Positions 16,011-59,927 of a DNA stretch of 64,000 nt are shown here, piece after piece. The stretch's first letter is position 1. Each line of letters opens with the position of its first letter. A program made the position numbers and the translations under genes. Source of the stretch: Sphagnum compactum (Eukaryota); assembly GCA_965153455.1 (NCBI GenBank), contig OZ234493.1:14188213-14252212 (forward strand), given 5' to 3'. The notes under the pieces are model-generated. The model saw only the letters and a list, made by a program, of their open reading frames with translations. It did no database searches and was not told where the DNA came from.

Positions 16011-18216
16011 TCAGTTTTATTTTACATGTGGTATAGCTTGAAGCTTGTTTGCTTCTTCATGATTTTGTCTCTCCCTTTTATCTGTGGTAGGCAATATATG
16101 CTAGGTTGCAGACTAGAAGAAGATCAGGCAAGGTGCAAACCAGCTTTGAATGAATCCCTTTGAAGTTCTGGTTTTAACTTTAGGATGTGGATGTTGTAAG
16201 CATTTTTGCACATGCTATTGCATCACTTTTTCCTCTAGGGCTATTTCTTTGAAGTACAGTGTTAGGGTTTTGAGGCATGGATGATTTATCTTCTTCAATG
16301 ACTCAAAATGTTGGATTGTTCTTTATGGAATTTGAGCATCCTCTTTTCTCCAGTCTTGGCAGGTAAGTGCCCCAAGATTTGTGCCCCCCCCCAACCACTG
16401 CCATCCTCTTTTTTTCACCCGGTGGCATCCACCACACAGTAGCTTATTCCATTTCGGAGGATTTGGTTGCAAAATTTCTGAGTTTTTGTGTTCAATCGTA
16501 TACCCACAATTGGTACAGTTTCCATCCAACCTGCATAAGATTGATCTTACAGAGCCCACTATTCTCAAAATTTCACACTCTGCTATTGCTCAGCCTTGTG
16601 CAAAATCCCTCTTCCAGAAGACAAATCTCAAACATCCAAAGAAAATCAGACACGGCCAAGAATGTTGTTGACTGTAGTGTGGAGTGCATATAAAAGACTG
16701 CAAGTGGGTTCTTGCACTCTTTTATTCTTGCACCCTTTGTTCCTTTTGAGCTCCTTCAGAAATTTTGCTACAAGAGAAACTCTGAGTTTTTTGGCTCTCA
16801 ATACTCTCCAAGAATGTGTAGTTTACAATGGTGTACTGATGGATCATAACAGCATTTCTTTAATTGTTTCCTGATAAGAGAACACTTCTTTTTCTGCAGG
16901 ATTTCCAAGCTTGTTATCTCAATCAATCTCAAATAACAAATAGGACAGTTCTTAAAGTCAATTGTAGAGGGCTTTCTGTTCCTATTTGGGTAACAATTAT
17001 GCTTTCAAACTTGATACGAAATCAAAATTAGGTTTTAATATATAAAATGTCCATGATATGGGCAGACAAATTATGAATGCAGAAGAGAAATTTGATACCT
17101 ATGAAGCTTCGAAGCTGGATTCTGTTCAGTTCCACAAAGTGACACAGTGCTGCTCATACTCCTGCACACATATGAAAACAAAAAAGATACCACAAATTTC
17201 TTGCTGCGTGTTTCTTCAAATGGAGGAATGAAAACAACCATTAAGGAAGGGTGGGGGGAAAAACCAAAAAAGAAAAGAAAAAAGAAAAACAACCATCTGT
17301 AAAACCCTTCTTGGTGGATCTAAATTGAGTAGTCACAGTACTTAAGAGAGTGCTACATACTAAGCACATTTACAGGTCCAAAGTCGGACTCAAAAATCAG
17401 TTTCACACTATTCAGAACCTGAAGCTCATTAGTGCCCTAATGGAGATGAGTAATACAAACATGCATACGAACTTAGCCTTTGTATCATGAGAAAGTGGTA
17501 AAGAAGTTTGCTTTGGGATGCTCATTCTAGATCATAATAATCCTAGAAGAATTCTGCAAAACCACAAACTAATTTGTGTGGGATTGTGCAAAAGAATTAA
17601 TTCTCCTCTGCTTTTTTGCTCCTAAATTCTCCAGTGCAAATTCTTGACTTGTTAATTTTATGAGCAACAGAGAGTGTCAATCATGCCACAGCCACCACAC
17701 CAGAGTTCTCCATGTGCTCTAGAATTTGTGAATTCTCTACTGATTTTTTATTTTGTCAGTACAATCTATCAATCAATCTCTCTGACACCCTTCCTTTCTT
17801 TCTTGCTGTTTTGTTTTGTCTTGGATCCAAGAATTGGAATTTGGATTTTGTCAAAACATCAGCTTTGATCTCTTACAAAAAATAGAGCTTTACTGCTCTG
17901 CAGAAAACACAGAGGTTTTGCACCAATTTGCAGTTTGAGAATTTGGGGAAAATTCCTTCTTCCTTTGATCAGCATGCATCTTGTGCAGGCACCTTCACGA
18001 CAATTGTTGAAAGTGTTGGAGTTGGAGAATTTTTTGGCGAATTCCTTCGACTTCCTTTGAGCACATGCATTTTCTTGGAGGTTAAAGCGTAGCTAGCAGC
18101 ACCAGAAGGGGGAAGTCAGCTATGTTTTGCTAGAAGCAGTAATCCATCCTCAAACCCATTTCAGGAACTCAGCTGCTGCTAGTACTAGTCAAGCTGCTGT
18201 CTGCGGCTGCTGCAGG

Positions 18217-19920
18217 CTAGGGATGTGAGCCAAGCATTCTCGACAGCAATTGCACTGTCACAGTATGACCGAATGGAACTCGCAGGTCCACGATCCGACG
18301 AGGCTTGGTAACAACATCAATGATGCGCAGCAAGCTTGAAGAATCAGCAACTGTAGTCGAGGCTGCCGCCGCATGAGACGTTGTCGAGGGCGGCCGCATG
18401 CTACTGCAAGCTGAGTCGACCCAGTTGGGTAGAGTACTAGAGGATGTTTGTCCGGCGGCGGCGCTGCATACGAAATTCTGGCACAAAGCCGCGGCGGTGG
18501 TGGATTGACAGCCGCGACTCTCCCCGCGAGGCGGCTGCACAATGCCACAAAGCTTACCGCCACGACCTACCAACTGCTCCAGATTCTGAAGCCGCGCATC
18601 CTCCATAAACACCCGCCATTCCGGTTCGTATTCTTCCGGGTCGTAGACACGGAGACGGCCGTTCACTTCATCGAGCACGAAAAGCTTACCGTCCACGGAA
18701 ACGCATTCGCCGGTAATTCCCTCACGGAGATGGCGTGCCATCTCAGTCCACTTACCAGTAGTGGGAGTGTAAACCAGTCCGACTTTTGCGAACACGCCCT
18801 TGCCGCTCACGATGTGGAGGTTGCCGCCGAGTGTAACCGCAGCCGTGGCTTCAGAGCTGCACTTGGAGGAAGTAGGTCCCGCGATGCGACGCCATGTGTT
18901 CCTTGCTACGTCGTAAACCTCCGCTGACTTGGCCACGTTCACGTCCCAGTCGCGGCCGCAACCGCTCACCACGTACACTAGATTCTCGTCTTCCGCTCCA
19001 ACCCCGCACGCACACCACTTCCTTGCCACCCGGAAGGGGGAACCGATAGTCCATTTGGACGTGATGGGATCGAAGATTAACGGATTCTCTAGCGCAGGTT
19101 CTAGTATTGGTCGCATGCGAGAGCGCCGTGCCCCTGCAGTTGTCGTCGTCGATCGGCTATAGTCCATGTCTTGTTCTTCTTGTTCTTCTGAGCAGTCGTG
19201 AACTTGCCCAGGTTTGGCTGCTGCGGCCGGGCGGTGATCGTGATCGACGCGAGGTGGTGGTGGTTGTGGTGGCGGTTTCCTCCATTTTAGGGCTGCTACC
19301 ATGACGAGCTTGGTGCGAGTGCTGGTGCATTGGACTGAGTACGAGACGCCGATGCATCCGGGTGCCGTCAGCTGGAAGTCCATGGCGTGAGGCGGCTGCG
19401 GGAGGTCGTGCCATCTCCCAGCTACCGGGTCGAAAGCATACCAGCGGAAACAGCCGTCTACGGGGGACTTGACGAGCGTGTACACCCAGTCGAGATCTAC
19501 CGTCCCGTGCTGCGCTCGCAGTCTTTGGAAGTAGAGATCGCTCAGGAGCTTACGCCACCCGTGGCTTACGCTAGAGATTGTTGCTAACGAGACACGAGCC
19601 AGGCATTCTAGGGCAAGAAAATCCGGCAGCCCTGGTAGGAGTGGCTGCTGCTGTTGCTGAGTCGAAACTGCTGTTGGACTTGCAGTAGAGTCTGTTCTCG
19701 AACAGCTAGCCGCCGCATCATGGCGCTCAAACTGTTGTTGGTTGACCATTCCGTGGCTCGACCTGCTAGGGATGCTCGAGTCGAGAATATCTGCAGAGCA
19801 TATCTGATCTTGAGAGTGATCTAAAAGGGCTCGCGTCAAGATCATGCTACCTTCTTGTTGTTGCAGTCGTGACGACAGTGTGGGCATAGTTGCATTGTGA
19901 TGGATGGAGCTGGTGGCCAT
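18217..19920 (-). CDS. F-box/kelch-repeat protein (SKIP25-like), intronless, 567 aa from first in-frame ATG
   Basis: F-box PLLPGLPDFLALECLARV...VSHGWRKLL; kelch blades (FDPVAGRW, RKWCACG, SAEVYDVARNTW, VYTPTTGKWTEM). The ORF is open from 19989 and the first ATG is at 19920. Confidence 0.9.
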   Translation of the reverse strand: MATSSIHHNATMPTLSSRLQQQEGSMILTRALLDHSQDQICSADILDSSIPSRSSHGMVNQQQFERHDAAASCSRTDSTASPTAVSTQQQQQPLLPGLPDFLALECLARVSLATISSVSHGWRKLLSDLYFQRLRAQHGTVDLDWVYTLVKSPVDGCFRWYAFDPVAGRWHDLPQPPHAMDFQLTAPGCIGVSYSVQCTSTRTKLVMVAALKWRKPPPQPPPPRVDHDHRPAAAAKPGQVHDCSEEQEEQDMDYSRSTTTTAGARRSRMRPILEPALENPLIFDPITSKWTIGSPFRVARKWCACGVGAEDENLVYVVSGCGRDWDVNVAKSAEVYDVARNTWRRIAGPTSSKCSSEATAAVTLGGNLHIVSGKGVFAKVGLVYTPTTGKWTEMARHLREGITGECVSVDGKLFVLDEVNGRLRVYDPEEYEPEWRVFMEDARLQNLEQLVGRGGKLCGIVQPPRGESRGCQSTTAAALCQNFVCSAAAGQTSSSTLPNWVDSACSSMRPPSTTSHAAAASTTVADSSSLLRIIDVVTKPRRIVDLRVPFGHTVTVQLLSRMLGSHP

Positions 19921-22900
19921 GAGCTGGGTGCAGCAGCATTGATCTGCAGAGGAGGAGGAGACCAGGATCCAATTCGCCGCACATGCCACAGAGTGATCAG
20001 AGCAGCCTGCTCGCCAGCTCCATGTTTTCGCGACCTAAAATGCTCCAGCTAACTGTCGAGAAACTGTAGTTTGTAATCTCAAGGGACCCTTGATCAGTCT
20101 CCACATAATTGCGTCTTCTTTTTCAGCTAGCTAGATCAAATGTCTAATTACAGCTAGTACCGGCTCACTTGTTTTTCTTGAGATTTTGCACTCAAGAATA
20201 TTATCATCCTGCAAACACCCATCACTGATATTCCTGCAGCCACGAGTCCACCACCCTAGTGATCTGGAAGCTGCAGCTAATGTCTCAAGAAAAAAATGCA
20301 AGCTGGGCCACACCCAAGCTTATTACAGACGAGAGCTATTCACAACCCATTACCACAAAACCAAACACAAACAAAACTGTCTGACCCAATGTTCTGAAAT
20401 TCGACACCAAGCTCCTCCTCCTCCTGCTGCTGTTTTCCCCACTCTCTAAATTAACTTGGACCAAAAACCCCCACAAAGAAAGACAAACAAACAAAGCTGC
20501 AAAACTAGTCTCCAGAAGTGACTCCCATGAACAACTTGGGAGGGATGGACTCTCAAGTCTTTTCAGAGACAAGAAAAACAACACAACAACCTGGAGGTTT
20601 TATAGCAAGCTACTCACTAGAGTCACTCACTCACATGGGAGTGGTCATGATCTGTATCATCCATTCCATCACGGGGACCACCGCCAAGTGGTCCACCAGC
20701 AACATGGCGAAGATCCGGATTTTGAAGCTTCAAAACTGACCGATCGTCAGCATCATTGTCAGCATCAAAAATATTTCAAAAGCTAGAAAAACCTGCAAGG
20801 AAGGATGAGAGCAAAAACTGCCGCTACTGTTGCAAGCAAACAATCGGATTGTATTCTCTTTTCTCCCTCAAATCGTTGCAGCAACTGTGCTGCTGCTGCT
20901 GCTTCTGCTCTCATGATCACGCAGGGGCACAAGATCCCGCCGCTGGTGGTGGTGGAGGATCACCACCACCATCACCGCCACCACAACAACACCGCCCTAG
21001 TAACATCCCCAAAAACAAACCAACCAACAAATACACACACAACGACAACGTGCTCCGACTCAAAATCCCCCCCCCCCCCACCCCAACTTCCACTTGAAGA
21101 CAAAAAAAGGGTCCCAAAAAAAAGTGCTCTCTAGAAAAGGTTTAGGGTTTAGATTCGATTGAGCACTTTTTTTTGGGATGCCCACAATCCCTCAAAGAAA
21201 GGAAAACCCAAAAGTACAATGTCTAATTGTACATTTTTCTTTTAAAAAAGAAAAAGAAAACTAAAAACCCATTCAAAGAATTTAATTCCATGAAAAAAAA
21301 ATCTAAAATAAATGGTAAAACACAATTAATTCCTCAAGGCAAAACTCACTCATCCCTTTACCATATATCAATGACCCAAAACAATTCAATTGTAATTTAA
21401 AAGTTATCATTTAATCAAAATTTATCAAACTAATTCTGTAGAAGAGAACCTTTTTTATTTATTCATTTGGAGTTGGGGAGTTGAGGAGTTGGGATTTGAG
21501 AAATGAAAAATAATAATAAGGGAGACAAAAAGGGAAGGCCAAAGAAAGGCCAAAAGACGCACAGCCCACAGGATCCCAAAAAAGGAAAGGGAGAGAGTTA
21601 GTCCCTCTCGTGGTAGGAACTTTTTACACTACTTAGTAGTACCAAAAGTTGCTTCTAAAAAAGTATTAAGTATATTCGACTTTAGTCTAAACCATGGTTA
21701 TCTTCTTCGAGTCCAAATCTAACATTTCCTGGGGTTAAATATAGGCCTATATATATAAACTCAAACTCAAACAAAATGTCTACATGAGTTAGTAGGTAGG
21801 ATCTATTTTGTTGGATGATTTTCTTCTACACCCAAGTTTTGTAGAAAGCTAAGACAATTTTATGCGTTGGTAAATATGATATAAAAAAGCTTCCAAAGCC
21901 AATATTTTTTTAAAAATTGACAAAATTTGGCCTCCAAACAAAATTTGGACGTTGGAACATGTACGAAGGATTTTTTTGGAAAAACTTTTTGGCCCATTGT
22001 TGTTGCCACATAATGAGGGCAAAAAAAAAACTGGAATTTGCCATATTTAGACACTAGGTTGTAGCATGTCACCCTAAAATATAGCATGATTCCTAAACCT
22101 TTTTACTTTCCTCTCTTGACTTGTAGCCATATTTGGGGCTAAAGTCCTTTTGATTTGATAGCCAACCCACCTACCTCACAAATTGGAGGGTGCAAAAAAA
22201 ACACACTACTACTACTTCCAACAATCTAAGAAAGACTTGTTCTTCATGTTTCCCTTGTCCTTTCTTCTGTGGAGTCCAAAGTTGTTCTATCATCTAGGTA
22301 TTATTCATAGATCATTGGGGTAGTAGGGGAGGGGGGATGGCATTTGGAGAAGAGGTTCAATTGCCCTACTAATGACAAGCCTGAGAAGAGAGAGAAATAG
22401 AGAAAGAGAGAGAGAGAGAGAGAGAGAGTTGATGAGTGAAGTAATTAAAGCTACTGACAAGGTTGCCTGCCCCATCAATAAGTCCACACCATAAACAGCA
22501 AAATTCAAACCTAGAAAAGCTGACAATCAAGATTTTCAAATCCCTAATTTGGAGAATTTGAATGAGAGAATAACACTAAATGACACCAACACTTTTGCCC
22601 TTGTCTCTGCATCATCATCCTCATTCATCATCATCCCTATTGCTGGCAAACCCTAAAATTAAGTTAAAATAAAGAAAATAGCTCAAGTCATGCAAAGTGG
22701 GTGTTGCTACTATCTAGGTTCTAGCTTAGAATTGTTTTGAAAAAGGCCATTTTCCATTTTTTTGAAAATTTTAAAACAAATATTAATGATGTAATTGAAT
22801 TCCACCATTTTGTGAACATAAAAAAGAGCCATCAACATCAACACAAATATTTTTTAATAAAAAAATTGAAATTCACCATTTTTAAAATGATATAATTTTA

Positions 22901-47900: not shown

Positions 47901-50900
47901 TCATCAAGTTCAGATCATAACATATTTTAAAATCTTACTCGTAAAACATATTTTCATGCAAAATTTTACATCATTACAAAATGAAACCTATTTTCATCTT
48001 GAGGATCATCAATTGTTTTGCACAAAACATGATTATCTAGGGTAGATTCCATTTGGAAGAAGATATTTAATATCTAAAGTTTAAATGATCATTCACTATG
48101 AAATTCATGCTTGTAATTTTGCCCCACATCATGTTTACAACTAGCAAATATCTATCCAATACATTAATTTATCATTGTCACCCCTTGGTAACCCAAAAAA
48201 TGCACACCATATCCATGATTGATTGATAATGGCTTAAAACTATTTGATGTGAATGCCAATCACTATTTTAAAATTGTTGGGCTACCATGCCATAGGCCAT
48301 TCTTCCACCCATCATGGGATACAATCAATGAATGCAACACACCATGTTTTGTGACATTAATTTTGAGTTCATGATGAAAGATGGGGCAAACCAAATAGGA
48401 AATGGGTTGAGAACAAGTTCAAGTAAGAAACACAAAGGTCTCAAAATGTGAATATTGAAAGTTAACTTTCATTTTCCATTTGGAGTTGTGAGATATGAGT
48501 TTTGGCCAAAATGAAGGTTGAGAACTTTTAATTCCCTATCATAAGCATGAAAATCAAAATATAAAAAGAATTCCATGGTACATGAAAACCAAAACAAACT
48601 ATGGCAAATGCAAACCTAGATCTAAATCCAAACATAAATCATGAAAATCAAATAAAAAAAACACAAAATATGAAAACATGAACATGAAATGAATCAAACA
48701 AAACTACAATGCAAAATCGCATTTTACACTAATGTTGAATAGATTTAAAATAATGGGGTCCTACTTTTATTTATATACCCATGTAAAGACTTAGTTTTAA
48801 AAACTTTCATGAAAGCTTCCATGTGTATACCATCCACAAAACCTTATTGAAAACTTTATTAAATATGAATTAACTATAAGTTATGAATAAGAATTGAACA
48901 ACAATGGATGAAAAATTGATTTTCAAGGATGAAATTCCTGATGATGATGTTGATGATGGTGATGTTGGCCATGATGTGGGGGATGTCATCTATGATATTT
49001 TTAACCACTTTAAAACACAAGAAGTAGTTTCGAATGACTTCTAATCTAAATATGCAACATGGTGTTGGAAATATATTGTTGAAGATTATAACTTTACAAT
49101 TTGAAACTCTTCAATTGAAATTTGTGAAATAGTTATGAACTTGCAAACTTGCAAAAGTCATAATTTGGGAATTTTAGAACTCACATTTGGAAGTCCTAAA
49201 CATTGTAACCATTTTGATGTAGCTTCCACTATCAATCATATAGTATATTGTATAGGGACAAAAATGGTGCTGTCTTCCTAGGCCTAGATCATGTGACTGT
49301 AATGAATCCAAAGCAAATTTATGACTCAAAATTTGTTCCATTTGCACTAACCGTTTGAAACAAGCTACCGCATGAACATAAAGTTTGAATTTAGAACCTA
49401 GAGTTGGAACTTGGGATGACAAAATGTTTTTTCCCTTGTACACATGCAAGTAAGACCCAAAAATTTAATCGCAAAATGAATGTTGTACAACTAAACCTAG
49501 AAATAAACATGTAAGCATTCATCGTCATTATGGATGAATGATTTTTCTCGTTCATCTTATGTATGGGTGAAAAAAATTGCATTTACATGTTTTTAATAGA
49601 TAGAATTTCCATTAAAATTATGGATGAATGTGTTTATTTTGTCATTAATTTTGTAATTTTTTTCCATAATTTTAATCAATTAAAGCTCCATGAAACACAG
49701 TTTCCCTTCTTATGAAATGAAAAATATATGAAATTATTCTTATTTATTATTAGTAATAATAGAATAAAAGATCGAATCAATTTTCATTATTGAGCATGAT
49801 TTTTTTCAAATTTAACCAATGTTGTTGACAACATTGGGTTTTGAATGTTTTGACTATTTTTAAACTACATAATGTCATTGGTGATAATGAATTTTTTAAA
49901 TAAACAAAAATTCAATTTTAGCCACCTTAAAATTTAGTTTTTTTCAAACAACCTACTATCATAGATGATAATGAAGTGTTTTTTAATAATTATTTATTTT
50001 CAAAGCACCCCAATTTTTCATGAAGTAAATATATAATGTTGTTGACAATAATTGGGCCGGGGGGGGGGGGGTTTACACCCATTCCATGACAATATTTTTG
50101 GAATTGCTTAACAATGTTCTAAAAATGATTTCTTAAACAAAATTTTAAAAGTTCCATCATCATATTTTCCCCTGTAATCACAACTTCATTATCCATCGTT
50201 ATTAAATGATATTCAAGTTTGAAATATTAATACTTGGACAACAAATGAGGATGGATATAAATTATTTTGAAATTTATTTATTTTCTAATCATGGATGAAT
50301 TTCACCCAATGATTTATTTATTTAATCCAAATCATAAATGAAATTCATCCATGTAAAAATGACATTCATGCATATGAAATCATTTATCTATGAACATATT
50401 CATCCATGTAGGTGGATTAAAATCACATTAAACTTTAAGTTCCTGAACTTTGATGGAGAATGAGATATTGTGATTACAAATGATGTTATGTATCAAAATG
50501 GATGAAAAATGATTGACATTTTCAATCCTATTTGAAAATGTCAAATATGTAAAAAATACATTTTCATATTTTAAAATGCAAGCTAAAAAAACCTTGAAAA
50601 ATGTTATATTATATACCCAAAATGCATTTTTAATTAAAAAAATTATTATTCAAAATTTGTTGTATTAGATATTAAAATGTATTTAAATAAATAAATAAAT
50701 AGGGCTGAGAATCTCAAAAGAAAATATTATATTGAATTCTTACAACCTGGCAAGGGAAAAGAAAGGTAGAAAGGGTAAACAAAATAATAAAAAATAAAAA
50801 ATAAAAAATAAAAAAATAAAATTTAAAGAATTTAAAAACTGGGGCTGGGGCCCTGGTATGGTCAACTGGGTGGATCAATACCATTTTAACAGACAACCGG

Positions 50901-51267
50901 GCTATTCAGTACCTCACTAACCGGACTTGGTGGGCGGAGGAGAAGCGGATATGCAAGTCCGCCTGCGGGTACTTACCCGTCTAACCGGACCAGAAGCCCA
51001 GTTGTGTGAGAAGAGCGTTCTCTTCTTTGTTTGCAATTGCGCCACATGCAACTTTTCTTGTTCTCTTTCTCGCTCGCAAATTGAAGAAGCTATGACGATG
51101 ATGATGATGATGATGGCCGGAAGTTCTTCTGCGGATCTAGGACGAGAACAATTAGGTGATGTTTTTCTTGAGAATTGAGGAGACTTGCGTGAGGATCGGA
51201 AAACGGTGAGAGAGTCCGTCCGTCCGTCCTTTCTTTCTTCGGCTTTTCTTTTATGGTTTTGAAAGAC

Positions 51268-54200
51268 ATGATGCGGAGCACCAAAGTGTTGAGGAGGCAG
51301 CTGCTCGTGGATGACACGAAGATGTGTTCTCCAATGTCAGGTATTGAGACTAGTTTTTCAAGTCTTTTGTCTCCAAACTTGTGCCATGTGCATTTGCATG
51401 TTTTGTTTCCCTTCTCCGATTTCTAGGAGAGAAGTAAAGAGTAATAATGAGAGCTTTTTTTTTCTTGGAATGAATGTTTGTAATCGTTCAATGTGAAAAG
51501 ACTTCTTCTTGTTTTGTGTATCTCAAGAGTTTTTCAGCAAATCCAAAACTATTCACAGTACTACATTCACACGTGCTGATTTCTGAAGAGATGTCCTGTT
51601 GTTTTGAAACCATCATTTCGAACTTGATTTTTAAGAGTCTGCTTCTGCAGAAGTTGAGATTTGTTTCAATCCTCTCACTTGCAAATGTAGTGCTGCTCCT
51701 CATGCTCTTCAATTGAAAGACTCTGCTGTTTAGTGTTTGGGTTTAGGGTTTAGAATTGCCTGCAGTTATTTCAATGCCAGAAGATATCAGTGGTGCTATG
51801 CACATTGATCTTATTCCCATAGTACACTGTCGTCTCAGGATCTCAGGATCTTCATGTGAAACACAATCCTGACAACATAAGGAAATGGACGAAGGTTTGA
51901 GTGCAAGTTTTGTATGCTGGATATCAGTAGTGCTATGCTTGTTGGGGCCTGACAACATAAGGAAATGGACGAAGGTTTGAGTGCAAGTTTTGTATGCTGG
52001 ATATCAGTAGTGCTATGCTTGTTGGTCTCACTCCCATTGTAAACTGTTGCCTCATGATATCTGCTGTATGTGAAACAGAACCCTAAACCCTAAATCCGCA
52101 TAGCATAAGAAATGGAGGAAATTTTGATGGTTTTCAACTGCTTGCTGTTTTTTGCAGTGCAGAGAAGAATGAAGGAACGACTTTGGCATGAGTTCTTCTC
52201 AGATCCTTCACAGTGGTGGGATCACAGGTCAGAGAAGGTAAGATCACTCAAAATCCATTTGTGAGTATACTGTTATTCTTGGTTATGGTTATTATAGCAT
52301 GACTTCCTGCTGCTCCAAATGGTAACAGCTGATCAGTTGGGTCATAGGTGAACTCAAGGTATCCTGATTTCAAGCATAAGACAACACAGCAGGCACTCTG
52401 GCTTGATGGCATATTGACCCCGCCATGGGTGGAAGCAAAGCTGGCAGCAATGGCACCAAGGAGTATACAACCAAGTGTTTTTCAATGGAATGTGAGGCTT
52501 GCGAGATATGTTAAGTCTGGGCAATATGAGAAGACAGTGGATCTTTTTAAGCAAATGAAAAGAGAGGGAATGGTTCCAGATGATGTCACCTTTGTTCATG
52601 TCCTGAAAGCATGCTCAAGTTCACAAGCACTCAAGGAAGGCCAGCATGTTCATCAAGAGATAGTTCGACGAGGTTGTGAATCTAATATTGCAGTGGGTAG
52701 TCGCCTCATTGACATGTATGCCAAATGTGGGCGCATTGAAGATGCGCAGATAGTCTTTGACAGGATGCCAACTCGTGATGTGGTCTCTTGGACTGCATTG
52801 ATTCTGGGATATGTAAAAAGTGGACAAGGTCAGAAGGCGTTGCAACTATTGCAACAAATGCAACATGAAGGGGTGCTGCCAGATCGTGTCACGTTTGTGG
52901 GGTTGCTGAATGTGTGTGCTAGTGTAGCAGCACTTGATGAGGGCAAGCATGTTCATAAACTGATTATTCAGAGAGGCTGGGAATCTGATGCTTTTGTGGG
53001 CAGTAGCCTTGTTGACATGTATGGCAAATGTGGTAGCATTAAGGATGCAGAGAGAGTGTTCAACAGCATGAGTACCCGTGATGTGGTCTGTTGGACTAGC
53101 ATGATTTTAGGGCATGTGAAATGTGGGCAAGCACGTGAGGCATTGGAGCTCTTTCAACAGATGCAACATGAAGGGGTGAAGCCAGATCAAGTCACCTTTG
53201 TGGGGGTGCTGAATGCATGTGCTAGTCTCATGGCTCTTGAAGAAGGCAGACGTGTTCATAAACAGATTGTTGAGAATGGTTTTGACTCTGATGTTTTTGT
53301 GGGTACTAGCCTTGTTGACATGTATTCCAAATGTGGGAGCATTGATGATGCGCAGTTAGTGTTCCACAGGATGTCCACTCGCAATGTGGTCTCTTGGACG
53401 GCCATGATACTCGGACTTGTGAAATGTGGGAAAGGGCAGAAGGCATTGGAACTCTCACAACAAATGGAACAGGAAAGGGTGCAGCCAAACCAGATCACCT
53501 TTGTAGGATTGCTGAATGCATGCGCTAGTGTTTCAGCATTGGAAGAAGGCAGGCGTGTTCACAAACAGGTTATTGAAAGGGGTTGTGAATCTAACATTTT
53601 TGTGGGCAATAGCCTAGTTGACATGTATGCAAAATGTGGGAGCATTGAGGATGCACAGAGAGTGTTTGACAGGATGACCACACGTAATGTGGTCTCCTGG
53701 ACTGCAATGATTCTGGGTCATGTGAAATGTGGGCAAGGGCAGAAGGCATTGAAACTATTGCAGAAAATGCAACAAGAAGGGGTTCACCCACACCCTGTTA
53801 CCTTTGTTGGGTTGCTGAATGCATGTGCAAGTGTATCAGCTCTTGAAGAGGGCAGGCATGTTCATGAACAGGTAATTAAAAGTGGTTGTGGATCGGATGT
53901 TTTTGTGTGTAATAGCCTCATTGACATGTACGCCAAATGTGGTAGCATAGAGGATGCAGAGAGAGTATTCAACAACATGGGTTCACGTGATGTCGTCTCT
54001 TGGACTGTGATGATTTTGGGACGTGTGAAATGTGGGCAAGGGCACAAGGCGCTGGAACTATTTAAACAGATGCAATGTGAAGGTGTCCAGCCAGATCGTG
54101 TCACCTTTGTAGCGTTATTGAATGCATGCGCTAGCATACTGGTGCTTAAAGAGGGTAGGCATATCCATGAACAGATTATCCAGAATGGTTTTGAATCGGA

Positions 54201-55038
54201 TCTGTTTGTAAGTAGTGGCCTTGTTGACATGTATGCGAAATGTGGGAGCATTGAGGATGCACGGCGGGTTTTCAATGGCATGGCCAAATGTGATGTTGTC
54301 TCATGGAATGCCATGATTTTTGGACATGTGAAATGTGGACAAGGGCTTGAGGCATTGGAACTATTTCAGCAAATGCAACATGAAGGCGTGCAACCAGACC
54401 CTGTAACCTTTGTGGCAGTGCTTAATGCATGTGCTGGTGTAGCAGCACTCGAAGAGGGCAGGAGGGTTCATAAACAGATAATTGAGAGCAGTTGTGAATC
54501 TGATGCTTTTGTGGGTAGTAGCCTCATTGACATGTATGCAAAGTGTGGGAGCATCAAGGATGCAGAGAAAGTGTTTAACAACGTGGCTCTTGGACATAAT
54601 GTGGTCTCTTGGACAGCCATGCTTGGGGGCTATGCCATGCATGGCCATGGTAAGGAAGCTCTTGAACATTTTGAGCGAATGCGTAGAGAAGGTGTAGAGA
54701 TAAATGGTGTTACCTTTCTATCTCTTTTGTCAGCTTGTAGCCATGCTGGCTTAGTGGATGAAGGCCTGGACTACTTTAAAGCCATGAGTCCAGTTTATGG
54801 TGTTTCTGCAACAGCAGAGCACTATGCCTGCATGGTTGACCTCCTTGGCCATGCTGGCCGTTTGCAGGAGGCAGAGGATCTGATCAAGAGTAGCCAGCAT
54901 TGTATGGAAGATGCCACTGCATGGACAGCCTTGCTTGGTGCCTGCAGAGTTCATGGTAACTGTGAGATGGGAGAACGTATTGCAAAACGAGTTGTTGAAC
55001 TGGACCCTGGCAATTCATCAGGCTACATGCTTCTTTGA
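51268..55038 (+). CDS. PLS-class PPR protein with N-terminal OSB-type PDF motif, 24 PPR repeats, E1 and truncated E2 (~947 aa); exons 51268-51340, 52158-52237, 52348-55038
   Basis: Spliced N-terminus MMRSTKVLRRQLLVDDTKMCSPMSVQRRMKERLWHEFFSDPSQWWDHRSEKVNSRYPDFKHKTTQQALWLDG. Seven P1-L1-S1 triplets (xLxDMYxKCG x7) plus P2-L2-S2 (LLSACSHAGLVDEG, HYACMVDLLG) and E1 (WTALLGACRVHGN). An in-frame upstream ATG also exists at 51253. Confidence 0.9.
51868..52025. repeat. Perfect 78-bp tandem duplication (80-bp period) in PPR intron 1
   Basis: CCTGACAACATAAGG...TGCTATGCTTGTTGG at 51868-51945 and 51948-52025. It is embedded in an older diverged repeat (~51783-51889 vs ~52000-52116). Confidence 0.95.
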
Positions 55039-55520
55039 AACATCTATGCAGCTGCTAGCAAGTGGAATCTCTGTGCGAGTATTCATTGACAGAGTTTGGA
55101 GTGTGAAAAAAGACCCGGGCCATACCTGGATTGTGATGAATAACAAGGTACACACATTTGTTGCAGATGACCAACATCACTCTCAGATGATGGAAAGCTA
55201 TGCAGAATTGATGAGGTTATCCAGGCTCATGAACAATGCTGGCTATGTGCCTGATACAAAATTCTTACTGCACGACATAGAGGAAGAAGAAAAGGTGTCT
55301 CAATTGTGGCACTACAGTGAGAAACTGGCCATTGCAGTTGGGCTAATCAGCACACCTCCTGGTACTCTGATTCGCATCTTCAAGAATGTGCAGGCATGTG
55401 GTGACTGCCACACTGCCTTCAAGTTCATTGCAAAGATAGTAGAGAGTGATTATAGTGAGAAATGCCAATCGTTTCCATCACTTTAAGGATGGGTATTGTT
55501 TTTGCAGGGATTATTGGTAA
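55039..55520 (+). pseudogene. Decayed E2/E+/DYW cytidine-deaminase tail of the PPR gene
   Basis: After LL* the frame continues NIYAAASKWNLCASIH*. After a frameshift it reads VKKDPGHTWI (PG box)...GYVPDT...HYSEKLAIA...CGDCH..KFIAKIV. After a second frameshift it reads RVIIVRNANRFHHFKDGYCFCRDYW* (TAA 55518-55520). Confidence 0.92.
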
Positions 55521-58500
55521 TAGACATTGTCACAGGTGCTCTTGTCATCACACTGCAATAGTTAGAATAGATAAGTTAAGGGTGTTCACATTGTTAAGTA
55601 CATCATTTGAGTCTTCTGCTGATTTTTCAAGGAGCAGTGAAAAAGGATCACTAGGTTAGGTTCATGCAGAATAGAACAGTGGCAAGTTCAATTTGACAAG
55701 TTAAGTTTTGTCTGGGATCTCCAGTTTTGTCCAAAGCTGTGTTCACTTTGAGAAATGAAGCAAACATGAAGGAAAATACAGAACCAAAAACCTTGAAAGG
55801 TTTGAGAGGTTCAAGGACCTATGTCCAGAAGAGACTTGGCCACTATTCAAAGGTTCCAGTCTAAACTTTCGCAAGAGCTTCCACGAGTACCATCTCATAT
55901 TTGAACCCAGGTTTTGGAAGGTGGGTCTCTTCCTTACTTTCTCCCTGTAGTTGTCCTTGTTGAGGGTACATGGCAGAGTGGTCCAAATAGGAAAGCTCAA
56001 GTTCTCTCTGGTGCAATGCTAACTTAGTTGAAGATAATGAGACTGAAAAGCTTGAGTCTCTAGGACTGCCACCATCTTTACATAGAATTAGTTCAGAGTA
56101 TGGAGGATCCTTTAGAGCATCTCCACCACACCCACTATTTGCGCTTGTATCAGTCTTTCCCCCATTTTCTCTCTGCAGTCAGTTTCTCTATGTTTCATCT
56201 TCCTTTTCTGTGCATCTGTTTAGTTTCTCCCCTCAAGTCTTTTCTTTTTGTATTTCTCCTTGTGTTGTTGTTTGTTGCTAGCCAGTATCATGGCCGAGTC
56301 TTCCTGTTGTTAATGTCTCTTTCTTGGAGGACACTAAATCCTGGGCATGTTTACAGGCACAGAAGTGAGTATCACACTGTTTGATTGCTATCTCTGTCCA
56401 AAATTTTAGTGTACTGGCCATTTTACTGCTGTGTGTAGAGATGTGCTTATATTCTGGCAAAATTCTTGTATGTACTAATATGTATATAACCTTCACTGAA
56501 AAGTTCTGGAGATGCAAAATTCATGTCTTCTTAGACAAGAATTGTTGCCCATGACACAATTGTAACCATGAAAATCAAAGCAACTTGAAGCAGCTACCCA
56601 TCACTCATATAGTCAGTAACACACAGAGCATCTCCAGCAGTGCTCAATATGTGATGCCACAATAATAAACTTTCACATCCAAGTTTAGTTATGTACTCTT
56701 TTGCAACCCCACCAATACTCTGTTGTCTACAACTTGTTCACATTGCATTGCTCATATGAGACTCACCAAAACCTTTGTCTTCTCATTTTCAGTTGTACCT
56801 TTGACAATCTCGTTGCTCTTGTGTTGATGATTTTTGTTTTTTAAAAAAAGATTGAAGCCTTTTGTGTTAAAAATATTGCAAATTTTAAGTTTATGTTTAT
56901 TTTTGGAAAAAAGAAAAGAAAAGAAGATAAATTGTTATCATGCTTGCACTTGTGGTTGAAAGTAGAAGCAAATAAAATTCAATTTAAAACATGCCACTGA
57001 AAAGGAAAGGAAAACCCCCAATTTTGAAATGCAATTTTAAAAAATTAGTAATATCCAAATGGAACTAAAATGAGGAGAATTATTTTTTAAATGCACAATA
57101 GTTTTTCAATAAAAGGTTTAAAAGGTTCAAAACTTAGTGCACATGTAGAAGAATGAGTTATGTGTTGCAATGCAAAAAATACATGATGGATTTACATTCA
57201 TTGATAATATCAGGGTTATTCTCTCCATTTTGCGTGATATGAATTTTTTTTTGCAAAAATTTACCAAAAATCAGCCAAATTAGTTGAATTTTCACTTAGG
57301 AGGGGAAAAAAAAAAAAAACCCATAAATTTCTCAATGCCAAAGATACGTTTTTAATGTTTTGCCATTCACATTAGAACGTATCTTAATGCAAAAGAAGAA
57401 TTATGGAAACTAAAATATTATTTCACCATGCAAAAATATAATCTTCAAAAAAAAAAAAAAAATCCTCTTAAAGAAACCAAAAAAAATCCTTCTAAGATAT
57501 TATTATAACTCTATAACTAATCTCAAGTTTCAACACAAGCCCAAAATATATCATCTTTCAAAAAATCCTCACATAAAAAACACACCTATTTATTACCTAC
57601 CAACTGAGGGGCCTATAAAAGTCCCTTAAGCTACTACTATACTCTGTAATGAATCTAAACACAACATATCCTTACCTTCTTTCTTCATAATAGGCCAGCC
57701 CAAAAACCTTTGCACTACTTTATGCACTAAAATTAGGCTCATTGCAATAATAGAATGAACAATGATGTTCTTTCACCCATTAACATGATGAGTCCTAACT
57801 CTCTAACCACTAATTATGTGTAATTAATTGCATGTTTTAGGGTTTAGGGTTTTAGGGTTTGCATGTTTTAACCCTATATCACTACTAGTCTTTTAAGCTT
57901 GGCTTACTACCAACCCAATAAGGCCCATTTTACACCCCCACTTTCACATACATCACCACACTCTTTTTTTTTCCTTGGCAAATTTGGAAAACAATTGGGG
58001 AAAAAATTATATATATATATATATATATAAATCATTTCCTGAGTACTATAGCTTTCCATCTCATTAAAAAAAACATTTATTTGAGGAATAAAATATAGAG
58101 CAAACACTTTTTAAAAAAACCCAATCTACCTAATATAATGAACACCTTCATCATAATGAACTAACAAACACTTTACACTAGAGTCCTTTCATATAAGGAC
58201 CTTTCATAGTGTTATTATTATGTTTTGAAAATAAATAAATAAATAAAAATCTCCACAAAAAGAAAAGAAAGAAAGGGAAATTTTTATAATAAAAATGACA
58301 TCATTTTAGACCCCAAATCTTCCATTTTGGAAGATTATCCATAACAACATTGAGATTGCACATATATATCCATATACATTATTATTATTATTTTATTTAT
58401 TATTATTATTTTACTTAGTAATTATTTTCCTTGGACATGTTTAGAGTTATAAATAACTTGACCAAATTTGGGCAAAATAAAAAGTAGAAAAAAAAAAAAA

Positions 58501-59111
58501 CAAATTACTTACTTACATGGGGGCTTAACTCTCTAAAGTGTACCCAAAAAGGGCAATAATTACATCCATTAATAGATTAGGGTTTCCAACTAACATCCCT
58601 TTCCATCTTAATGAAGCCCTTCTCCCTTCCTTTTCCTTCCTAGTTTAAGGGAATTAATTCCACAGGCCACGTTTTGTCCTTAAATCCTAATTAAGGAATC
58701 CTAATTAAGGATTCCCTTAATTAATTAATTAACGGAAAACCCAAATGTTCTCATCTCCTTCTTCTTGGACGTCGTCCGCATTCGGTCCTTCTCGTCTCCT
58801 TCACGTCCGTGTACGCATTTCGTTCGTGGAACTCCGACAACTCCGTTCGCTTCCTTCCTTCCGTCTGTATTCGTCGTTTCTCGTCGCCACTTCCCCCCCT
58901 TCCCCTTCTATAAAACTCTCCCTTCTTCGCCACAGCGCAGCAGCCCGCAGGAGCAACGCCGCAGAGGAAGAAGTTGCTGCGCAGAGTTGTGCGGAGAGCG
59001 TTTTGCAACAGAGTTCTGTTTCGTTTTTTTGTTTGTTTGCTTGCTTGCTTCTTCTTCTCTTCTTCTTGCAGTGATAACTTGCAGTTCTTCTTTTGTTTGC
59101 AATTTAGTACC

Positions 59112-59927
59112 ATGAGGAATCGTCGGGACATCAGCTATATTCGGCCAAAGGTGCACAGCATGAAGCTCCGTCAACGACGAGTGCAGGCCCATCAGAATCG
59201 TTCTTCATCAACAACAAGGTCCTCCTCTCGCCGCCGAGGACCCCGTACTGCAATCTGCCCCTTGAAGATCATCACCGTGACGACGACGATGATGACTACG
59301 TCGAGCACCGCGAGTGAGGTGGCAGAAGCTGTACAAAAAACTCATGCTACGAGTCGTCTTTTTCGCTACAAGACGGAGATGCTAGCTGCTTTCAGATACC
59401 TTGATGCAGTGAAGCTGAGATTCGATCCGCCCATGCCAGGAAGAAAAATCTTCAACCGCAGGACGGCCTACAACGAGTTCGTTGACACCATGGCTGAGTT
59501 CAAGGAGCAGCGAATCGACATCACGGAAGTTGTGAACCGAGCCAACGAGCTCTTCGCAGGTCACCCCGACCTCATCCTGGGGTTGGGTCGGTTCCTACCC
59601 AATGGCGGTTCTCAGTACTTCGGATCATCGCCGCCTCCGGAACTTCATCTGCAGGTGGCCTTGAAGGCGATAGAGCGGCAGAGTCAAGCCACGACCACCA
59701 AGGCGATCGCGGTGGTGCGCAAGATCCAGGCTCTATTCTCGGTGCAGACGGACAAGGCACATCAGGAGGTCTACAAGAACTATGTGGCCATCTTCAACGA
59801 GTACATCGAGGGTACTACTAGCATCCCGGAGATGTACACCCAGCTCTCGCAGCTATTCCTCGCCGAGTACCCGGATCTGCTCGCGGAGCTCGCCGAGTTC
59901 TTCCCGGAATCCGCTCGCTCTGCATGA
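59112..59927 (+). CDS. Intronless stand-alone paired amphipathic helix (PAH1-PAH2, Sin3-like) protein, 271 aa
   Basis: PAH1: AFRYLDAVKLRF...YNEFVDTMAEFKEQRIDITEVVNRANELFAGHPDLILGLGRFLP. PAH2: AIAVVRKIQALF...VYKNYVAIFNEY...IPEMYTQLSQLFLAEYPDLLAELAEFFP. GC3-rich codons and an Arg-rich N-terminus. The start codon is uncertain (59112 or 59160). Confidence 0.85.
   Translation: MRNRRDISYIRPKVHSMKLRQRRVQAHQNRSSSTTRSSSRRRGPRTAICPLKIITVTTTMMTTSSTASEVAEAVQKTHATSRLFRYKTEMLAAFRYLDAVKLRFDPPMPGRKIFNRRTAYNEFVDTMAEFKEQRIDITEVVNRANELFAGHPDLILGLGRFLPNGGSQYFGSSPPPELHLQVALKAIERQSQATTTKAIAVVRKIQALFSVQTDKAHQEVYKNYVAIFNEYIEGTTSIPEMYTQLSQLFLAEYPDLLAELAEFFPESARSA

Follow-up and report, generated by a model that had tools for sequence, protein, structure and literature searches.

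The window analysed here is a stretch of 64,000 nucleotides from the moss Sphagnum compactum (GenBank assembly GCA_965153455.1, contig OZ234493.1, positions 14,188,213 to 14,252,212 of the forward strand), and all positions below are counted from its first letter. Between 51253 and 55520 its plus strand carries a gene for a pentatricopeptide repeat (PPR) protein of the PLS class, in which the block just ahead of the repeats resembles the PDF motif of the organellar single-stranded DNA (ssDNA)-binding proteins, the OSBs. In plant organelles, cytidine-to-uridine (C-to-U) editing depends on PPR-DYW proteins both for its specificity and for the enzyme itself, and these proteins are being engineered into programmable RNA editors; OSB proteins protect organelle genomes by ssDNA binding. 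A first-pass annotation of the sequence had proposed that the two are fused in this gene. Judging from the identity of its parts and from its architecture, we are practically certain that the locus is a nuclear moss gene for a PLS-class PPR protein with one genuine N-terminal PDF motif. The predicted product is most likely a 952-amino-acid PDF-PLS protein without catalytic activity of its own. The features of the gene are:

51253 to 51340, plus strand: coding part of exon 1, with candidate ATG codons at 51253, 51268 and 51271, a phase 1 end and the leader MVLKDMMRSTKVLRRQLLVDDTKMCSPMS+G
51341 to 52157, plus strand: intron 1, 817 nucleotides, GT at 51341-2 and AG at 52156-7
52158 to 52237, plus strand: exon 2, 80 nucleotides, encoding the first half of the PDF motif, ..RMKERLWHEFFSDPSQWWDHRSEK; the motif proper runs from 52166
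52238 to 52347, plus strand: intron 2, 110 nucleotides, phase 0, GT at 52238-9 and AG at 52346-7
52348 to 52461, plus strand: start of exon 3, encoding the second half of the PDF motif, VNSRYPDFKHKTTQQALWLDGILTPPWVEAKLAAMAPR, in one exon with the PPR array
52480 to 54951, plus strand: PLS-type PPR array with a period of 303 nucleotides (101 amino acids) per P-L-S triplet, repeated 6.3 times in tandem (76% DNA identity), and with terminal motifs in addition
54952 to 55038, plus strand: first part of the E1 motif, interrupted by an in-frame TGA at 55036-55038 where intact relatives have Ser (..GYVLLSNIYA..)
55039 to 55520, plus strand: decayed E1/E2/DYW remnant, transcribed as 3' sequence, with the original TAA at 55518-55520

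Among the open reading frames of the window, the frame 52109 to 52264 reads ...RMKERLWHEFFSDPSQWWDHRSEK up to 52237, and the frame that opens at 52348 reads VNSRYPDFKHKTTQQALWLDGILTPPWVEAKL and continues for 896 codons through the PPR array, so the peptides quoted for exons 2 and 3 by the first-pass annotation are found where it had placed them. The phase 1 end of exon 1 is completed in frame by the first two bases of exon 2. Together, exon 2 and the start of exon 3 encode a 62-amino-acid motif directly before the PLS-type array, and intron 2 splits this motif between ...R-x-x-K and x-N-x-x-Y-P-D-F. Ahead of the motif lies a leader of about 37 residues, within the range of 20 to 130 residues seen in relatives. 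The Arg-rich presequence that had been claimed for exon 1 is borne out only in part, since the first 30 residues hold three Arg but also three Lys and three Asp.

On the 896-codon frame, Pfam recognizes PPR_2 (E 7e-145, 12 stretches) and PPR (E 8e-124, 16 stretches), followed at the very end of the frame by positions 1-28 only of the 63-position E_motif; the DYW deaminase (PF14432, E 1.7e-23) is matched downstream in a different frame. Neither the exon 2 frame nor the exon 3 frame has a Pfam SSB or OB-fold match. The PDF motif is without any Pfam model, and residues 1-40 of the exon 3 frame are unmatched. A match of DUF1132 to the exon 2 frame (E 0.026) lies under the Pfam cut-off and was treated as noise.

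Transcription and splicing

Four RNA runs were mapped on 50900-55800. Three of them (X1, X3 and X4) consist of contigs of three metatranscriptomes, and the fourth (X23) of polyA raw reads with the same species label, sampled to about 12%. X23 contributed 154 mapped reads; in almost all of them the first mate maps to the minus strand, which fits a plus-strand transcript in a usual stranded library. Its depth was between 0.4 and 10.8 across the bins of 51064-55800, save for zero in 51392-52047 inside intron 1, and remained at 2-8 over 54836-55800, the decayed DYW part included. The transcript starts upstream of 51253, as RNA contigs cover 51124-51337, the first beginning at 51124.

Both splice junctions proposed by the first-pass annotation occur in polyA RNA reads and in contigs, although read numbers are low. 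The joint 51337>52155 (cut +3, equal to 51340/52158) skips 817 nucleotides with GT..AG ends and is supported by two raw reads of X23 and by a single contig from each of X1, X3 and X4. Between exons 2 and 3, the joint 52235>52346 (cut +2, equal to 52237/52348) is present in one X23 raw read and again in one contig of each metatranscriptome; an unspliced contig of 166 bases over intron 2 (52210-52375) was also found in X1 and X4. The same exon 2-exon 3 join is part of the JGI gene model P0010, which is 99% identical over the first 120 residues of exon 3. An artefact of gene modelling, in which an OSB exon was wrongly joined to a PPR gene, is ruled out because half of the motif lies inside the PPR exon and RNA joins the other half to it. 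Joints within the PLS array (53222>54451 and 53712>54530) were rejected as splicing: they have no GT..AG ends and short sides, and were read as cross-matches between repeat units or paralogs.

Some further observations concern the transcribed region. The leader contains an upstream open frame (51093-51178) that starts with ATG ACG (ATG)6, giving MTMMMMMMAGSSS..., and ends with a TGA before the main ATG; RNA reads appear cut at the ATG repeat (51086-51123). Intron 1 harbors a perfect tandem duplication of 80 base pairs (51868-52025, 2.0 copies, 100% match). At position 53112, six of 12 X23 reads have A instead of G, a synonymous change (GGG>GGA) that may stem from allelic variation or from a paralog of nearly identical sequence.

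The PDF motif on PPR proteins and its origin

The N-terminal block was compared with OSB proteins by means of a profile (A1) of 18 aligned PPR N-termini, comprising 62 columns, 15 of them invariant, and including no OSB. The signature ..YPDFKHK.. is located at 52360-52380, and its P30, D31 and F32 are invariant in all 18 aligned N-termini. In a search of 1.84 billion representative proteins, A1 matched 1232 at E<=1e-3, 533 at E<=1e-10 and 64 at E<=1e-30. Among the best 150 of the 1232 matches, 12 were PPR-like (phmmer against a window-like array) and 138 were not. The latter carry one copy of the motif in 15 cases, two in 54, three in 32 and at least four in 37, some single-copy matches being short N-terminal fragments of PPR genes. 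Named OSB2 and OSB3 proteins were matched by this PPR-derived profile at E 1e-30 to 1e-60, well outside what chance would yield in a library of this size. Examples are P0179 of Morus ('protein OSB3, chloroplastic/mitochondrial', E 1.8e-34) and P0196 of Telopea ('protein OSB2, chloroplastic-like', E 9e-30); further matches named by their source are OSB3 of Lupinus (cluster of P0133), Quillaja and Elaeis, and OSB2-like of Phoenix. The Pfam SSB model scored over its cut-off in P0172, P0185 (Ceratopteris) and P0260 and under it in P0151 and P0128, and gave no match in the PDF-bearing proteins P0179, P0167 and P0134. Such weak or absent matches fit the 'poorly conserved' OB-fold described for OSBs in the available part of a recent family study (PMC13393729).

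When A1 was aligned by hhalign with 27 PDF motifs from seven named-OSB or SSB-matching proteins (two of the seven with SSB under the Pfam cut-off), it scored a probability of 99.8% and E 1.8e-28 over 54 columns with 44% identity. The profile matches to OSBs and the hhalign score together identify the N-terminal block as a true PDF motif; by sequence comparison, it is homologous to the PDF motif of OSBs. The first-pass annotation had made its proposal hinge on a hidden Markov model match to OSB PDF motifs, and this match was found by both methods. The consensus it had given, W..FF..P..WWDxR..K....PDFKHK....LW, emerged from the profile computation as well. Invariant in OSB PDFs and PPR versions alike are W, WWD.R, K, PDFKHK, LW and P.WV. 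In the accessible parts of the OSB literature, the PDF motif is a block of about 50 amino acids with a conserved Pro-Asp-Phe signature (PMC6963530, PMC4166229). A word-index search among shorter proteins with the motif of P0005 returned 108 matches from 110 candidates, PPR-type proteins or fragments and no OSB, which is a limit of the word filter.

Apparent fusions of the PDF motif to a kinesin (P0169, Coptis) or to an ICR2-like protein (P0151, Striga) were set aside as probable gene-model fusions. The OSB-like protein P0128 (Kingdonia uniflora, 1160 amino acids) has 13 matched PDF stretches, far exceeding the one to five copies per protein mentioned in the available text of the OSB family paper.

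Two AlphaFold2 models were examined, one of a 310-amino-acid relative from Sphagnum magellanicum (35-sequence alignment) and one of the 62-amino-acid motif alone (a shallow alignment of 18 PPR-type sequences). Their mean predicted local distance difference test (pLDDT) scores are 82, with 80-92 for the motif in context, and 87, respectively. Both models agree on a compact unit of helix, two strands and helix. One helix stands at the N-terminus (..EKLWREFFSDP) and the other at the C-terminus (PPWVEAELAAM), with a short strand at WWD, a second one at FKH and a bridge at LW between them; the half encoded by exon 3 is modeled as strand, turn, strand and C-terminal helix. Foldseek of the 62-amino-acid model against the PDB gave a non-significant WW domain as best match (E 4.2). 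The best VIA-align score, covering 45 residues, was Z 2.9; 25 chains scored Z>=2 and no chain reached Z>=5. A search of the PDB by sequence returned PPR and DYW entries only and no solved PDF. This lack of fold matches does not show that the fold is new.

Among 405 proteins collected by our searches, a set that is not a genome census, 168 are PPR-like and carry the PDF motif (122 with one copy, 40 with two and six with three). The motif is N-terminal: in 134 of the 135 PDF-PPR proteins longer than 400 amino acids, all PDFs lie within the first 36% of the chain, and the single exception (P0335) looks like two genes merged in the gene model. A DYW-like C-terminal tail is present in 39 PDF-PPR proteins. 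Intact relatives with E1, E2 and DYW (PF14432) behind the same N-terminus are P0005, P0012, P0013 and P0028, and P0013, compared by sequence with the PDB, matches PLS-PPR entries and the synthetic PPR-DYW protein 9kfx (E 4e-282). The named sources are Sphagnum species, the liverwort Calypogeia fissa (P0028), the lycophyte Diphasiastrum complanatum (dozens of proteins) and the fern Adiantum capillus-veneris (P0171). No seed-plant PPR protein with a PDF motif was seen among the matches listed, i.e., the best 150 of 1232 and 120 of 495. Tandem PDFs before the array, two or three, are frequent in Diphasiastrum (P0329-P0333, P0142 and others), and two occur in Adiantum P0171; Sphagnum proteins usually have one.

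Finding the same N-terminus in moss, liverwort, lycophyte and fern makes an old origin plausible, and by their sequences PDF-PLS-E-DYW proteins appear to form a large, old class in these lineages. The suspicion of the first-pass annotation that the N-terminus marks a lineage-expanded class proved right, as it is found on many PLS/DYW PPRs in Sphagnum and beyond. Its remark that PLS-E-DYW proteins normally lack the PDF motif holds for the factors described in print, but not for these lineages, where the motif is frequent.

How the motif came to stand on PPR proteins can be approached by phylogeny and by intron position. In a FastTree phylogeny of 275 motifs over 60 columns, a branch with an SH-like support of 83 sets 39 of the 44 PPR-linked motifs apart, none of the 231 non-PPR motifs lies among them, and the nearest motifs outside this group belong to SSB-bearing or fern OSB-like proteins. 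Against this stand the small number of columns and the five PPR-linked motifs outside the main group, namely the three of P0142, the second motif of the Adiantum protein and one fragment. The tree is thus no more than suggestive of one origin for the PPR-linked PDF motifs.

Metagenome contigs were scanned with the OSB-like protein P0260, which gave the OSB-like loci L004 and L005 and near-copies of them, with exons for SSB pieces (E 2.5e-8 and 1.4e-3) plus one PDF. The motif of L004 is interrupted as ...WWDNRKDK / gtaatc...tgcag / RNPKYPDFKHK and that of the window gene as ...WWDHRSEK / gtaaga...catag / VNSRYPDFKHK. Both introns thus lie at the same place, in phase 0 and four codons ahead of YPDF. 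About 29 Sphagnum-type paralog open reading frame fragments read '...SEKV' and then diverge, as would follow if members of the family have this intron in common. Most PLS genes otherwise contain few introns, so that an intron common to them and an OSB-like gene argues for acquisition of the module from an OSB at the DNA level. The comparison therefore suggests that the PDF module was captured from an OSB gene by exon transfer, although the common intron is known from one OSB-like gene lineage only. A further OSB-like locus on a metagenome contig of 1.4 kb (L001, 326-1000; SSB E 5e-18 plus one PDF) is intronless, unlike L004 and L005, and is probably a transcript-derived contig or an intronless relative.

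Decay of the deaminase in the window gene

The E1-E2-DYW region of the window gene, mapped by tblastn with the C-terminus of the intact relative P0012, falls into three segments in three frames. The TGA at 55036-55038 replaces the Ser of ..LLSNIY.., a second TGA follows at 55087-55089, and frameshifts are located near 55103-55119 and near 55441-55443. Where intact proteins read C-H-H-S-E, the remnant reads W-H-Y-S-E (WHYSEKLA), so that HxE has become YSE and the zinc-binding His is lost; CGDCH and the ..CFCRDYW tail are still present. The window copy thus lacks the intact in-frame E1-E2-DYW extension with HxE and CxxCH. With two TGA codons, two frameshifts and Tyr in place of the HxE His, the gene as sequenced cannot be an autonomous editor.

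An assembly error behind the first stop and the first frameshift is unlikely, as the X23 reads show no alternative letter or indel at either site at a depth of about 7.6; at the second frameshift the X23 depth is only about 1.9. The truncation is also found elsewhere: the open reading frame P0001, 98% identical, ends at the same residue as the window frame, which implies that the truncation is older than this divergence and that the frame has remained open since.

Is the locus then a dead pseudogene, i.e., a decaying relic transcribed as noise whose long frame is merely young? For this locus, such a reading is not negligible, but we consider it unlikely. It draws support from the two stops, the two frameshifts and the lost HxE histidine in the E2/DYW part, from a leader rich in upstream open frames, from the short exon 1 leader with its three Asp, and from the fact that no annotated protein of a named species is a close match, the best matches being unnamed JGI open reading frames. 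It sits less well with the distribution of damage, since the frame of 896 codons upstream of the first stop is intact and the 480 nucleotides downstream contain four disruptions. Stranded polyA RNA with both introns spliced argues against it as well, as does the 98%-identical open reading frame with the same stop, whose frame has nevertheless stayed open.

The substitutions point in the same direction: 17 of the 31 listed single-base differences in the 896-codon frame are synonymous, compared to 21.6% of the possible changes. These differences are pooled, 30 being to near-identical RNA contigs and one a read polymorphism, with seven more unlisted. As the contigs come from three metatranscriptomes, the excess is a rough sign of constraint and no estimate of the ratio of nonsynonymous to synonymous rates (dN/dS). 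On balance, we prefer to see in the locus an expressed PDF-PLS derivative that lacks DYW, and not a gene that is dead altogether.

A comparison with seed plants is instructive here. Their DYW-less E-class PPR proteins borrow a DYW domain in trans, and the product of the window gene would end inside E1 after a full PLS array, in the manner of a truncated editing specificity factor. In contrast to these proteins, the truncation in the window gene represents recent decay, with a DYW remnant still recognizable downstream.

Two other open frames of the window were noted outside the PPR gene. A frame of 605 amino acids (18217-20034, minus strand) resembles a single-exon protein gene, and the stretch in which it is found (18001-20000, GC 0.56) is the one GC-rich part of the window. 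A frame of 337 amino acids (58914-59927, plus strand) downstream of the PPR gene has a Ser/Arg-rich start and a helical-looking C-terminal half.

Possible roles of the PDF motif on PPR proteins

As far as the accessible parts of the respective papers go, the PDF motif of AtOSB1 suffices for ssDNA binding (PMC6963530), OSB1 and OSB2 favor ssDNA over double-stranded DNA or RNA (PMC4166229), and OSB1 lowers R-loops at mitochondrial repeats (PMC8330923). Since the residues invariant in OSBs are unchanged in the PPR versions, we take the module to have kept its OSB activity; it has been multiplied in tandem in OSB-like and PPR contexts alike. On this sequence evidence, nucleic-acid binding by the PPR-borne PDF is likely. 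In the mechanism we propose, the PDF module would act as a sequence-independent clamp on single-stranded nucleic acid and hold the editing factor at ssDNA that is exposed where the organelle nucleoid is being transcribed. In this position, the PPR tract would encounter its target in RNA that is still nascent, which would raise the local concentration and allow co-transcriptional editing. We put this ssDNA or nucleoid tether forward tentatively, at slightly less than an even chance.

Several points weigh against such a tether. Conservation is the sole ground on which the mechanism would stand. The motif is located about 20 residues ahead of the first PPR helix, after a conserved linker, and hence where the 5' side of a bound RNA would be expected, a position that fits a contact with RNA at least as well as a tether to DNA. 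In the AlphaFold2 model, the linker to the first PPR helix has a pLDDT of about 68, so that the relative geometry of PDF and PPR is loosely constrained, and the fold searches yield no solved relative that points to a ligand. Characterized editing factors of seed plants and Physcomitrium work without a PDF motif, which indicates that the motif is not needed for editing as such. Nor does the motif appear in the list of extra PPR domains in the available portion of a Physcomitrium review (PMC9459714).

The main rival turns this position to account. Here, the PDF motif has turned to single-stranded RNA and extends the PPR footprint in the 5' direction by sequence-independent contacts, which would raise affinity or keep the target unfolded, with no role for nucleoid DNA. 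PPR tracts lie on RNA with their N-terminus toward its 5' side, and a motif that always stands directly before the first PPR motif, with conserved spacing and a conserved linker (..PPWVEAELAAMAPGTVQLNIFSWN..), would be well placed for this purpose. OSBs bind RNA less well than ssDNA, but are not stated to fail to do so in the available text (PMC4166229). However, the residues of the ssDNA-preferring OSB PDFs are unchanged and the sequence bears no sign of a ligand switch, while the two or three tandem PDFs on lycophyte PPRs are more reminiscent of avidity for a long strand than of footprint capping. We consider this RNA-side role improbable, though deserving of serious attention.

A role in protein contacts, where the PDF serves oligomerization or recruits a partner such as OSB itself or nucleoid or editosome proteins, has a small probability in our view. 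AtOSB2 is a tetramer (PMC6963530), and small Trp-rich sheets such as WW domains, the non-significant top rows of Foldseek (E 4.2), bind peptides. Yet these fold matches are far from significant, and the literature, in the parts available, credits the PDF with ssDNA binding and not with assembly (PMC6963530, PMC4166229). We know of no partner protein of the PDF motif. Finally, the boldest idea of the first-pass annotation, namely that in intact members the PDF brings the DYW deaminase to single-stranded DNA of the organelle, is extremely unlikely: it has in its favor only that an ssDNA-binding motif and a cytidine deaminase occur in one chain, and the two lie at opposite ends of a solenoid of 600-1200 amino acids whose PPR tract, which positions the deaminase, reads RNA.

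The architecture can be set beside known systems. OSB proteins (AtOSB1-4, with OSB2 equal to PTAC9) share the PDF motif with its invariant residues and its tandem multiplication, and the OSB-like gene L004 has the phase 0 intron at the same place inside the motif as the window gene. OSBs, however, have a central SSB-like OB-fold with C-terminal PDFs, whereas the window gene has no OB-fold, which means that it is not an OSB, and an N-terminal PDF followed by a PLS array. OSBs also act in DNA recombination surveillance, while PPR-DYW proteins act on RNA. With the PLS-E-DYW editing factors (Physcomitrium PPR56 and PPR65, the Arabidopsis DYW-type proteins), the intact relatives have the PLS array, E1/E2 and DYW in common. 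The available part of the Physcomitrium review draws such factors as transit peptide, PPR and E/DYW with no extra N-terminal domain (PMC9459714). The PDF-PPR class differs from them by one to three added PDF motifs, and the window copy in addition by the want of a working DYW.

A PPR tract combined with a second nucleic-acid module is likewise found in PPR4 (RRM), PPR-SMR, OTP51 (LAGLIDADG) and PRORP (NYN), and in PPR4 this module is N-terminal as in PDF-PPRs; the accessory domains described in the same portion of the review are RRM, LAGLIDADG, SMR, NYN, CBS and SAP (PMC9459714). These proteins are of the P class and their modules are directed to RNA, whereas the host of the PDF is of the PLS/DYW class and the module is known as an ssDNA binder.

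The main text of a 2026 kingdom-wide survey of domain fusions of editing factors contains neither OSB, PDF nor single-stranded DNA (PMC13386178). In the available text of the 2026 OSB family study, 'PPR' and 'pentatricopeptide' are not found, and its methods appear to retain only proteins with both OB-fold and PDF (PMC13393729). In the full texts that were searchable, no paper was found that connects the PDF motif with PPR proteins. On PPR-DYW proteins, the PDF is thus a widespread accessory domain of a well-known family that is undescribed in the searchable literature.

A bolder picture would join these elements. The PDF module would have been captured once from an OSB gene, intron included, early in land plants, and a large share of bryophyte, lycophyte and fern editing factors would be tethered to nucleoid ssDNA by one to three copies of it, editing co-transcriptionally on the DNA template; seed plants would have swapped the tether for other helpers. 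As a whole, we hold this scenario to be doubtful.

In summary, an abundant and conserved fusion of the PDF motif to editing factors in four non-seed plant lineages links the OSB and editing systems. If a census of the PDF motif counts only proteins with an OB-fold, most genes of these plants that bear a PDF would escape it, and the accessory domain may matter where PPRs of mosses or lycophytes serve as design templates. The locus itself adds the case of a DYW-less, still-expressed derivative in a moss. For the family, the fusion raises the idea that editors may be anchored at the DNA template or at sites of transcription prone to R-loops.

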